From NCBI RefSeq assembly GCF_050920415.1, contig NZ_CP169309.1: a stretch of DNA of 64,000 bases. One strand, given 5' to 3'. A program made the translations under genes and the position numbers. Under the pieces are notes generated by a model, which was given only the letters and a program-made list of their open reading frames with translations, searched no databases and was not told the DNA's origin. Of this stretch, positions 9,300 through 58,937 are shown piece after piece. The stretch comes from Escherichia coli (GTDB lineage: Bacteria > Pseudomonadota > Gammaproteobacteria > Enterobacterales > Enterobacteriaceae). Each line of letters opens with the position of its first letter. Position 1 is the stretch's first letter.

Positions 9300-9713
<414 letters not shown>

Positions 9714-10022
9714 TTATTCAGCCTCCTGTCTGGGTCAGCCGAATCCCGGGGAGGCAAGGAACGTGTTAAAGGTCGGCTGAAAAATGACGCGTTATAGTAC
9801 TGACATACCCCGTTAAACTCAAGGCCAGCCGACAAATAAATCTCATCTTTCACCAAATCGTACTAACACGCTGATTTGAAGTTCATCACACTTCATCATG
9901 GTGTTTTTTTGAACAACTGCATCAGAAATGGTCACCATCAACTTCTTTATCATTGATTAAAATTAAATCAGAAGATCACCACAAGAGGAGAGCACACAAA
10001 GTCAGCCGTCGAGGAGGTATCT

Positions 10023-43205: not shown

Positions 43206-43281
<76 letters not shown>

Positions 43282-43316: not shown

Positions 43317-43392
<76 letters not shown>

Positions 43393-57768: not shown

Positions 57769-58302
57769 ATGCGCCTGCTCCCTCTCGTTGCCGCAGCGAC
57801 AGCTGCATTCCTGGTCGTTGCCTGCAGTTCTCCTACGCCGCCGCGTGGCGTGACAGTAGTGAATAATTTCGACGCCAAACGTTATCTCGGTACCTGGTAT
57901 GAGATTGCCCGTTTTGATCACCGCTTTGAACGTGGACTGGAAAAAGTCACCGCAACATACAGTCTGCGGGATGATGGCGGCCTGAATGTCATTAATAAAG
58001 GCTATAATCCTGACAGAGAAATGTGGCAGCAGAGTGAAGGGAAAGCGTACTTTACCGGCGCACCAACTCGCGCTGCGCTGAAAGTGTCATTCTTTGGTCC
58101 TTTCTATGGCGGTTATAACGTTATTGCACTCGATCGGGAATACCGCCATGCGCTGGTTTGCGGCCCGGACCGCGACTACCTGTGGATACTCTCCCGCACG
58201 CCAACCATTTCTGACGAAGTGAAACAGGAAATGCTGGCAGTCGCGACCCGGGAAGGGTTTGATGTCAGTAAGTTTATTTGGGTACAGCAGCCCGGTAGTT
58301 AG
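57769..58302 (+). CDS. blc: outer-membrane lipocalin Blc
   Basis: 177-aa ORF with lipoprotein signal peptide (LVVACSS lipobox) [35 protein letters not shown]... Confidence 0.95.
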
Positions 58303-58616
58303 TGAGTGCTGAGTTTCAGACCAATAATCCCCAATACGATTAACGCCAGGCTCGCCAGGCGCATCGGGTTAGCGGACTCACCGAGCAGCACAATACCGGT
58401 GATGGCCGCGCCGACTGCGCCAATACCCGTCCACACGGCATAAGCTGTCCCTACTGGTAACGATTTCATCGCCCAGGCAAGTAGCGCCATACTGACAATC
58501 ATCGCCGTCACGGTAATAACACTTGGCGTCAAACGACTAAAGCCGTGGGTATATTTCAGGCCAACGGCCCATACCACTTCCAGCAGGCCAGCAATAACTA
58601 AGATAATCCAGGACAT
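58299..58616 (-). CDS. gdx: SMR-family guanidinium exporter Gdx (SugE)
   Basis: 105-aa product starting [26 protein letters not shown]... at the ATG at 58616 (GGAG RBS); convergent 4-nt overlap with blc. The ORF-track N-terminal extension is actually the riboswitch leader. Confidence 0.94.
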
Positions 58617-58634
58617 ATCAGGCTCCGGAGAATT

Positions 58635-58677
58635 GGGGCCGTCCCCGGTGAAAAGAGGCGTTTGCAGGTCGTCCTGC
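58635..58677 (-). promoter_or_regulatory. guanidine-II riboswitch (mini-ykkC motif) in the gdx leader
   Basis: Two tandem hairpins with ACGR loops on the minus-strand RNA: GCAGG-ACGA-CCUGC (58664-58677) and GGGG-ACGG-CCCC (58635-58646), separated by 17 nt and sitting just upstream of the gdx RBS. Confidence 0.8.
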
Positions 58678-58748
58678 AAAGCTGATGGTTGAACGGGTAT
58701 TTTGCCAGGTGGCAGGGGAATTTCAACTATTACCTTAGTGACTATCGC

Positions 58749-58783
58749 AAAAAAACAAACGGCACGACACAGCTGTCGTACCG
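58749..58783 (-). terminator. rho-independent terminator downstream of ecnB
   Basis: Stem CGGCACGACA/TGTCGTACCG with one mismatch (58760-58769 and 58774-58783), followed on the minus strand by a U-run (plus-strand A-run 58749-58756). Confidence 0.7.
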
Positions 58784-58790
58784 TTATTGC

Positions 58791-58937
58791 TTATTGCTGT
58801 GCTTTTGTTGCTGCACCAGAAATCGCGTTACCGCCATCAGAGATATCTTCACCAACGCCACGCGTGGTGTTGCAGGCAGTTAATACTGTTGAAAGCACCA
58901 GAACAGAAAAGATCGCTGCAATTGTCTTCTTCACCAT
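58791..58937 (-). CDS. ecnB: entericidin B (bacteriolytic small lipoprotein)
   Basis: Hand-translated 48-aa [51 protein letters not shown] with lipobox LTAC; absent from the ORF track (shorter than its cutoff). Confidence 0.9.

Follow-up and report, generated by a model that had tools for sequence, protein, structure and literature searches.

Guanidine-II (mini-ykkC) riboswitch in the chromosomal gdx (sugE) leader of Escherichia coli and a tentative P2-based model of its OFF state

The guanidine-II riboswitch of the Escherichia coli gdx gene has been known since the first mini-ykkC report and has been validated from 2017 onward. In this class, each ACGR hairpin loop binds one guanidinium, kissing between the C and G residues of the two loops brings hairpins P1 and P2 head to head, and the linkers are mostly at least 13 nt long (PMC5486947). 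Huang, Wang, and Lilley crystallized with guanidine an RNA named “E. coli P1_8bp UUUGCAGGACGACCUGCAAA” and written UUUGCAGGACGACCUG(BrC)AAA (PDB 5NDI; PMC5486947). The 49-nt E. coli sugE aptamer was analyzed by Schamber et al. using NMR and SAXS, with P1 (loop ACGA) described as the stronger binding site and the P2 loop, ACGG, as a weaker, lower-activity “tuning” variant (PMC9300104), while Fuks et al. reported intramolecular kissing in a 47-mer studied by smFRET (PMC9094411). [quoted passage not shown] Finally, Kojima and Ito described a Cs+-resistant E. coli strain, ZX-1, with a 20-bp deletion, AGAATTGGGGCCGTCCCCGG (plus strand), that removes P2 and accompanies constitutive expression of gdx, as judged by an RNA-seq experiment (n = 1 per condition) on a strain that also carries other mutations (PMC13064478). 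In that work, Gdx-dependent Cs+ resistance was enhanced by guanidinium, and the GGAG motif was marked as the SD sequence in Fig. 1 (PMC13064478).

The stretch of DNA analyzed here (referred to as the window) comprises 64,000 nucleotides of an E. coli chromosome (contig NZ_CP169309.1 of RefSeq assembly GCF_050920415.1). The gdx locus in the window consists of the following features.

58785..58758, minus strand: terminator-like hairpin after ecnB, a 12-bp stem followed by a T-run, TGTTTTTTTG
58726..58699, minus strand: promoter-like sequence TTGAAA-16 nt-(TG)CAAAAT, found in a consensus scan
58680..58634, minus strand: guanidine-II aptamer as delineated by Rfam RF01068, model positions 1 to 48 of 48
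58682 to 58658, minus strand: 2-bp extension of P1, in which G58682 and C58681 pair with G58659 and C58658 across the bulged C58660
58680-58661, minus strand: P1 hairpin, UUUGCAGG-ACGA-CCUGCAAA, 8 bp, with the ACGA loop at 58672-58669
58660-58647, minus strand: linker L1/2, CGCCUCUUUUCACC, 14 nt, pyrimidine-rich
58646-58635, minus strand: P2 hairpin, GGGG-ACGG-CCCC, 4 bp, with the ACGG loop at 58642-58639
58626-58623, minus strand: SD sequence GGAG, 8 nt 3' of P2 and 6 nt 5' of the ATG
58616-58614, minus strand: ATG start codon of gdx
58616..58299, minus strand: gdx (sugE) coding sequence, 105 amino acids plus stop, a guanidinium/H+ antiporter of the SMR family

In the 5'-to-3' direction, the minus-strand leader reads ...UCAACCAUCAGC-UUUGCAGG-ACGA-CCUGCAAA-CGCCUCUUUUCACC-GGGG-ACGG-CCCC-AAUUCUCC-GGAG-CCUGAU-AUG. 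The two GG-ACGR-CC cores lie in GC-rich stems (GGACGACC and GGACGGCC), and the gdx ATG is found 18 nt 3' of the end of the element on the coding strand. The original prediction, which was made from the sequence alone, described the two hairpins without stating their strand, and both are indeed present on the minus strand. Its P2, GGGG-ACGG-CCCC, is found exactly as written at 58646-58635. For P1, given there as GCAGG-ACGA-CCUGC, the loop and the core pairs stand, but the stem has 8 bp and a 2-bp extension rather than 5 bp. Likewise, of the proposed span of 58677 to 58635, the 58635 end is retained, whereas the far end moves to about 58682, so that the whole element with the P1 extension covers approximately positions 58682-58635 (minus strand). 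The RNA in PDB 5NDI is identical to the minus strand of the window at positions 58680-58661, and the aptamer is the one examined in the NMR/SAXS and smFRET studies.

The gene downstream of this leader encodes a product that scores 193.5 bits against the NCBIfam SugE equivalog NF008512 (cut-off, 126 bits) over residues 1 to 104. In the K-12 MG1655 record, gdx (b4148) is annotated as “guanidinium exporter,” and in the listed E. coli genomes the PGAP gene name is “quaternary ammonium compound efflux SMR transporter SugE.” The gene order at the locus is efp-ecnA-ecnB-sugE(gdx)-blc-ampC. The genes gdx (minus strand) and blc (plus strand, 57769-58302) are convergent, with a 4-nt overlap of their 3' ends at positions 58299-58302. 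The gdx transcription unit is bounded upstream by the terminator-like hairpin at 58785..58758. Transcription of gdx probably starts near position 58692, roughly 12 nt 5' of P1, judging from consensus scans that detected the promoter-like site at 58726..58699 and a similar site in Citrobacter werkmanii (locus L006), TTGAAA-17-AAAAAT, at an equal distance (19 nt) from P1.

The 511-nt locus (positions 58290-58800) was found in 5,424 of the 5,426 complete E. coli genomes. Its 79-nt leader (58614-58692) is 100% identical in K-12 and B-derived laboratory strains and was matched by 5,412 genomes, with at least 95% identity in all but one of them. At least 80% coverage of this leader was seen in 5,406 genomes, compared to the 5,424 that matched the 511-nt locus; up to about 18 E. 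coli genomes, of which one (strain 167, see below) was inspected, may carry disrupted or divergent gdx leaders. No riboswitch feature was present at this locus in the inspected records, which included the PGAP/RefSeq annotations and the curated record of K-12 MG1655.

Two other features of the window were recorded. The RpsF leader (RF02893) at positions 9693-9777 (minus strand) is a full-length Rfam match with 110.1 bits. Two tandem tRNA-Gly(GCC) genes, at positions 43206-43281 and 43317-43392 (minus strand), have identical Rfam-aligned sequences; K-12 presumably has three tRNA-Gly copies (glyVXY) at the corresponding locus, and the window strain may have one copy fewer.

The original prediction read the gdx leader as a guanidine-II riboswitch, suggested a search with the Rfam mini-ykkC model, and named the lack of an Rfam match and of hairpin conservation in orthologous leaders as grounds for refuting it; neither was observed. 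In the Rfam scan of the whole window, RF01068 (Guanidine-II) was the single riboswitch match, with a score of 50.4 bits, well above the gathering score of 32 (E = 5.2e-7). Neither the window nor the 40 scanned homologous loci gave a match to the guanidine-I, -III, or -IV families. The sequence motif itself is less telling: the octamer GGACGRCC taken singly occurs at the chance level (3 in the window compared to 3.4 expected), so the composite pattern is required as evidence. That pattern, GGACGRCC-N(5-35)-GGACGRCC, has a single occurrence in the window and is absent from all 100 dinucleotide-preserving shuffles. The total folding energy of the leader is not unusual compared to shuffled sequences (z = -1.4), although such a whole-leader score is uninformative for so small a switch. 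The chance frequency of the lone octamer and the unremarkable folding energy are what could be expected if the hairpins were a fortuitous occurrence or part of a generic structured leader without a ligand-sensing role. With the composite motif absent from all 100 shuffles, the E-value of the Rfam match, the conservation and covariation across genera described below, and the published structures and binding data for the identical sequence, that explanation is vanishingly improbable, and it was rejected.

The orthologous set consisted of 80 loci that encode a Gdx protein, taken from a scan of the genome collection. Rfam was run on the 20 Enterobacterales loci and on 20 more distant ones (L023-L042), and the loci L043-L081 were covered by an ACGR-hairpin regular expression only. 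RF01068 matches above the gathering score were found directly 5' of gdx in all 20 Enterobacterales loci (38.3 to 48.8 bits), including a plasmid-borne one, and in 8 of the 20 more distant loci from Alpha-, Beta-, and Gammaproteobacteria; these matches end 13 to 45 nt 5' of the start codon. The conservation anticipated in the original prediction is therefore seen throughout the Enterobacterales sample. At least two ACGR-capped hairpins within 200 nt upstream of the gene were detected in 50 of the 80 loci and in none of the 80 on the reverse complement of these segments. In the other 12 of the 20 more distant loci (L024, L026, L028, L030-L035, L038, L041, and L042), no Rfam family reached its gathering score. 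Three of these, L024, L030, and L033, have two ACGR hairpins despite the lack of an Rfam match, in two cases with long spacers of 49 to 63 nt, and may represent variants of guanidine-II that the model fails to detect.

In the alignment of 20 leaders (alignment A1), the GGACGRCC cores are invariant and the stems vary; the linker is 12 to 17 nt long and variable in sequence, and GGAG is aligned in most orthologs. Standard base pairs occupy 92.3% of the cells, compared to 31 to 52% when the pairing partners are slid by 1 to 3 columns. Compensatory changes were found in 8 of the 10 P1 pairs, counting the 2-bp extension, and the covariation score of 0.481 (mean of shuffled alignments, 0.189) was reached in none of 500 shuffles; RNAalifold recovered the same two hairpins from the ortholog alignment. 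The GGGG/CCCC stem of P2 is invariant in the 20 Enterobacterales leaders, so that within this order P2 provides conservation but no covariation. Compensatory variants of P2 are seen in distant loci, e.g., GCGGGG/CCCTGC, GCAGG/CCTGC, and CGGG/CCCG.

Alignment A1 also records the variation of the extension and the loops. The 2-bp extension of P1 across the bulged C58660, which lies outside the Rfam model, is conserved and covarying, with GC:GC in E. coli and AC:GU in six further genera. Only the RIT691 isolate departs from an ACGA loop in P1. In P2, the leaders of Escherichia, Citrobacter, and Enterobacter have an ACGG loop, and an ACGA loop is seen in those of Pluralibacter, Shimwellia, the RIT691 isolate, Hafnia, Serratia, Providencia, Budvicia, Photorhabdus, and Yersinia.

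Taken with the SugE/Gdx gene located downstream and the prior literature, the Rfam match and the conservation in orthologs bear out the guanidine-II reading of the gdx leader. We consider it nearly certain that this element is the chromosomal guanidine-II (mini-ykkC) riboswitch of E. coli, residing in the ∼76-nt 5' leader of gdx (sugE); its proposed mode of action is that of a translational ON switch. The finding is correct but already known and is not a discovery.

The mechanical open reading frame at this locus starts at the TTG codon at position 58679 and runs uninterrupted to the gdx stop codon, encoding 126 amino acids. If gdx indeed started at this TTG, the leader would encode a 21-residue N-terminal extension and the hairpins would be incidental; the upstream frame is in fact open in E. 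coli for 58 codons. However, positions 1 to 104 of the SugE profile align with residues 22 to 125 of the long product and with residues 1 to 104 of its short counterpart, with no gain in score from the extra residues (192.6 bits for the long form versus 193.5 bits for the short form). Both the RefSeq and the curated K-12 coding sequences begin at the ATG at 58616, which is preceded by the SD sequence GGAG 6 nt upstream. Among the 19 orthologs, 4 have an in-frame stop at most 21 codons upstream and 7 lack any in-frame alternative start. Moreover, the GGACGRCC cores are found in different frames (GDGP, GTAP, and RGRP), covering all three relative to the ATG, which places their conservation at the level of RNA, not protein. 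A coding extension is thus extremely improbable, and the 21 codons were rejected as coding sequence on the strength of the profile alignment, the RefSeq start, and the ortholog frame evidence. As the original prediction had maintained, the apparent N-terminal extension is leader RNA: the profile starts at residue 22, RefSeq uses the ATG start, and the upstream frames of orthologs are broken.

The way in which this leader controls gdx expression was explored by RNA folding. According to the mechanism proposed for the translational ON switch, the weak P2 would be mostly unfolded in the absence of the ligand, with the ribosome-binding site (RBS) sequestered; guanidinium would promote formation of the P1-P2 kissing complex that locks the P2 hairpin and frees the SD sequence and the AUG; and the exposed RBS would then allow synthesis of Gdx and export of guanidinium. 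In the folding model of the free leader, P1 stays folded, with pair probabilities of 0.94 to 1.0, and P2 is marginal (P = 0.11 to 0.18). In the minimum free energy (MFE) structure of the free leader, the GGGAC segment of P2 pairs with G-UCC-U of the start region (G58645-C58641 with G58614-U58610), GGC pairs with the GCC after the SD sequence (G58640-C58638 with G58623-C58621), and CC pairs with the GG of the SD sequence (C58636-C58635 with G58626-G58625). This alternative helix between P2 and the RBS is also seen in roughly half of the orthologous leaders, namely, those whose genes begin with AUG-UCC-UGG.

Pairing of P2 with the RBS region had a mean energy of -11.1 kcal/mol in 19 leaders and was better than in shuffled sequences (z = -0.99; t-test p = 2e-4, without phylogenetic correction). 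The corresponding values for the linker with the SD sequence in the same number of leaders were -4.3 kcal/mol and z = -0.37 (t-test p = 0.16, also not phylogeny-corrected), i.e., anti-SD pairing of the linker was no better than in shuffles across the 19 leaders. In E. coli, pairing of CUCU with GGAG adds only about -1.6 kcal/mol over P1 and P2. These values speak neither for nor against an anti-SD role of the linker.

To represent the bound state in ViennaRNA, P1 and P2 were enforced and their loops blocked in the leaders of E. coli and 19 orthologs. The opening energy of the region from -13 to +9 was 8.1 kcal/mol in the free leader versus 7.3 kcal/mol in the bound mimic, a difference of less than 1 kcal/mol. 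The mean unpaired probability at the RBS across the 20 leaders was 0.46 in the free state versus 0.49 in the bound mimic (Wilcoxon p = 0.02). With ddG values of 0.1 to 4.1 kcal/mol for the bound mimic, the direction of the change fits an ON switch, but the effect is small and is not taken to establish the mechanism.

The ZX-1 deletion corresponds verbatim to positions 58629-58648 of the plus strand of the window. Its modeled opening energy is 7.1 kcal/mol, ∼1 kcal/mol below that of the wild type, a change so small that ViennaRNA alone does not explain the reported constitutive phenotype. With P2 gone and the linker retained, the ZX-1 leader is reportedly in the ON state, which fits P2 better than the linker as the repressing strand. 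Based on the MFE and ensemble folds, the complementarity of P2 to the RBS above that of shuffles, and the ON state of the ZX-1 deletion, we tentatively suggest that in the OFF state of E. coli and its closest relatives the P2 strand, including the ACG nucleotides of its loop, might unfold and pair with the GG of the SD sequence, the GCC that follows it, and the start codon together with codon 2; this is a possible model, which we hold with less than even confidence. If it is true, guanidinium would act simply by trapping the P2 hairpin in the kissing complex.

A natural counterpart of the laboratory deletion was found in E. coli strain 167, isolated from human urine (NZ_CM132950.1; L082:2501-2548). 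This strain has lost 29 nt, GCCTCTTTTCACCGGGGACGGCCCCAATT, which correspond to positions 58659-58631 of the minus strand of the window, so that the linker and P2 are gone and P1 is followed by CTCCGGAG-ATG. The deletion resembles the laboratory-selected ZX-1 allele reported as constitutive. Its junction is unique among the 5,426 complete genomes; the other junction matches with at least 80% coverage are alignments at 90% identity, consistent with P1 aligning onto the similar P2. The loss of P2 in both ZX-1 and strain 167 suggests that constitutive expression of Gdx is easily reached by evolution.

The translational reading has to be weighed against one in which P1 and the U-rich linker form an intrinsic terminator or attenuator, making the control at least partly transcriptional. 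A terminator scan flagged P1 followed by CGCCTCTTTT in E. coli (58661-58651, minus strand) and, likewise, its equivalent in C. werkmanii, TTTGCAGGACGACCTGCAAA CGCTTCTTTC (L006:1138-1167), and the effect of the ZX-1 deletion was seen as raised gdx mRNA in RNA-seq. Higher mRNA levels are, however, expected indirectly from translation-coupled stabilization or from the relief of Rho-dependent polarity. The U-run is also short (4 U) and separated by 6 nt from the 8-bp stem, or by 3 nt from the extended one, and the linkers of other orthologs, such as CGCAUCACUCAUC and UCACGCAUCUGUUAUUC, are not rich in U. Further, the ligand-bound ON state requires a folded P1, so that a terminator built on P1 would oppose the switch, and ZX-1 retains both P1 and the U-run yet shows increased expression. 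Guanidine-II riboswitches are classed as translational in the literature (PMC5558903 and PMC12186494). We therefore regard a role of P1 in termination as very unlikely; the terminator-like flag on P1 and the pyrimidine- and U-rich linker is probably a coincidence or a reflection of the anti-SD character of the linker.

The practical value of delineating this element is modest and lies in annotation: RefSeq/PGAP records have no riboswitch feature here and most E. coli genomes still use the gene name SugE, and recovering the element in a scan therefore improves the annotation. The details of RBS occlusion matter for engineering so small a switch into a guanidine-inducible part.

Among the related systems, the guanidine-I (ykkC), -III, and -IV riboswitches share with guanidine-II the ligand and the controlled gene families (gdx/sugE and guanidine carboxylase) but have unrelated folds; guanidine-I and -IV control transcription termination, and guanidine-III relies on a pseudoknot. 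The gdx (sugE) genes with guanidine-II leaders that are found beside blaCMY-2 and blc on conjugative plasmids have the same gene and architecture as the window copy. Copies of gdx and its leader with 60 to 80% identity are carried by approximately 680 plasmids, most of them conjugative, in Escherichia, Salmonella, Klebsiella, Providencia, and other genera, and in the Providencia plasmid p8538-NDM-1 (L007:1138-1182) the leader matches Guanidine-II with 47.2 bits. These plasmid copies are of the Citrobacter type and mobile, whereas the copy in the window is the native chromosomal one, located between ecnB and blc. The guanidine-II riboswitch of Pseudomonas aeruginosa (Reiss and Strobel 2017; PMC5558903) belongs to the same class and has the same architecture, a SugE-like gene, and a proposed translational ON mechanism, in which the suggested partners of the SD sequence are a portion of the linker together with the 5' end of P1 (PMC5558903). 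In contrast, the complementarity between the linker and the SD sequence in E. coli is weak (-3.5 kcal/mol; z = +0.2), and the P2 loop is ACGG rather than ACGA. The closest described system is the E. coli sugE/gdx representative of the guanidine-II class itself: given the 100% match of the 79-nt leader to K-12, the element in the window is the same one, and the sole addition made here is the suggestion that P2, and not the linker, could be the partner that sequesters the RBS.
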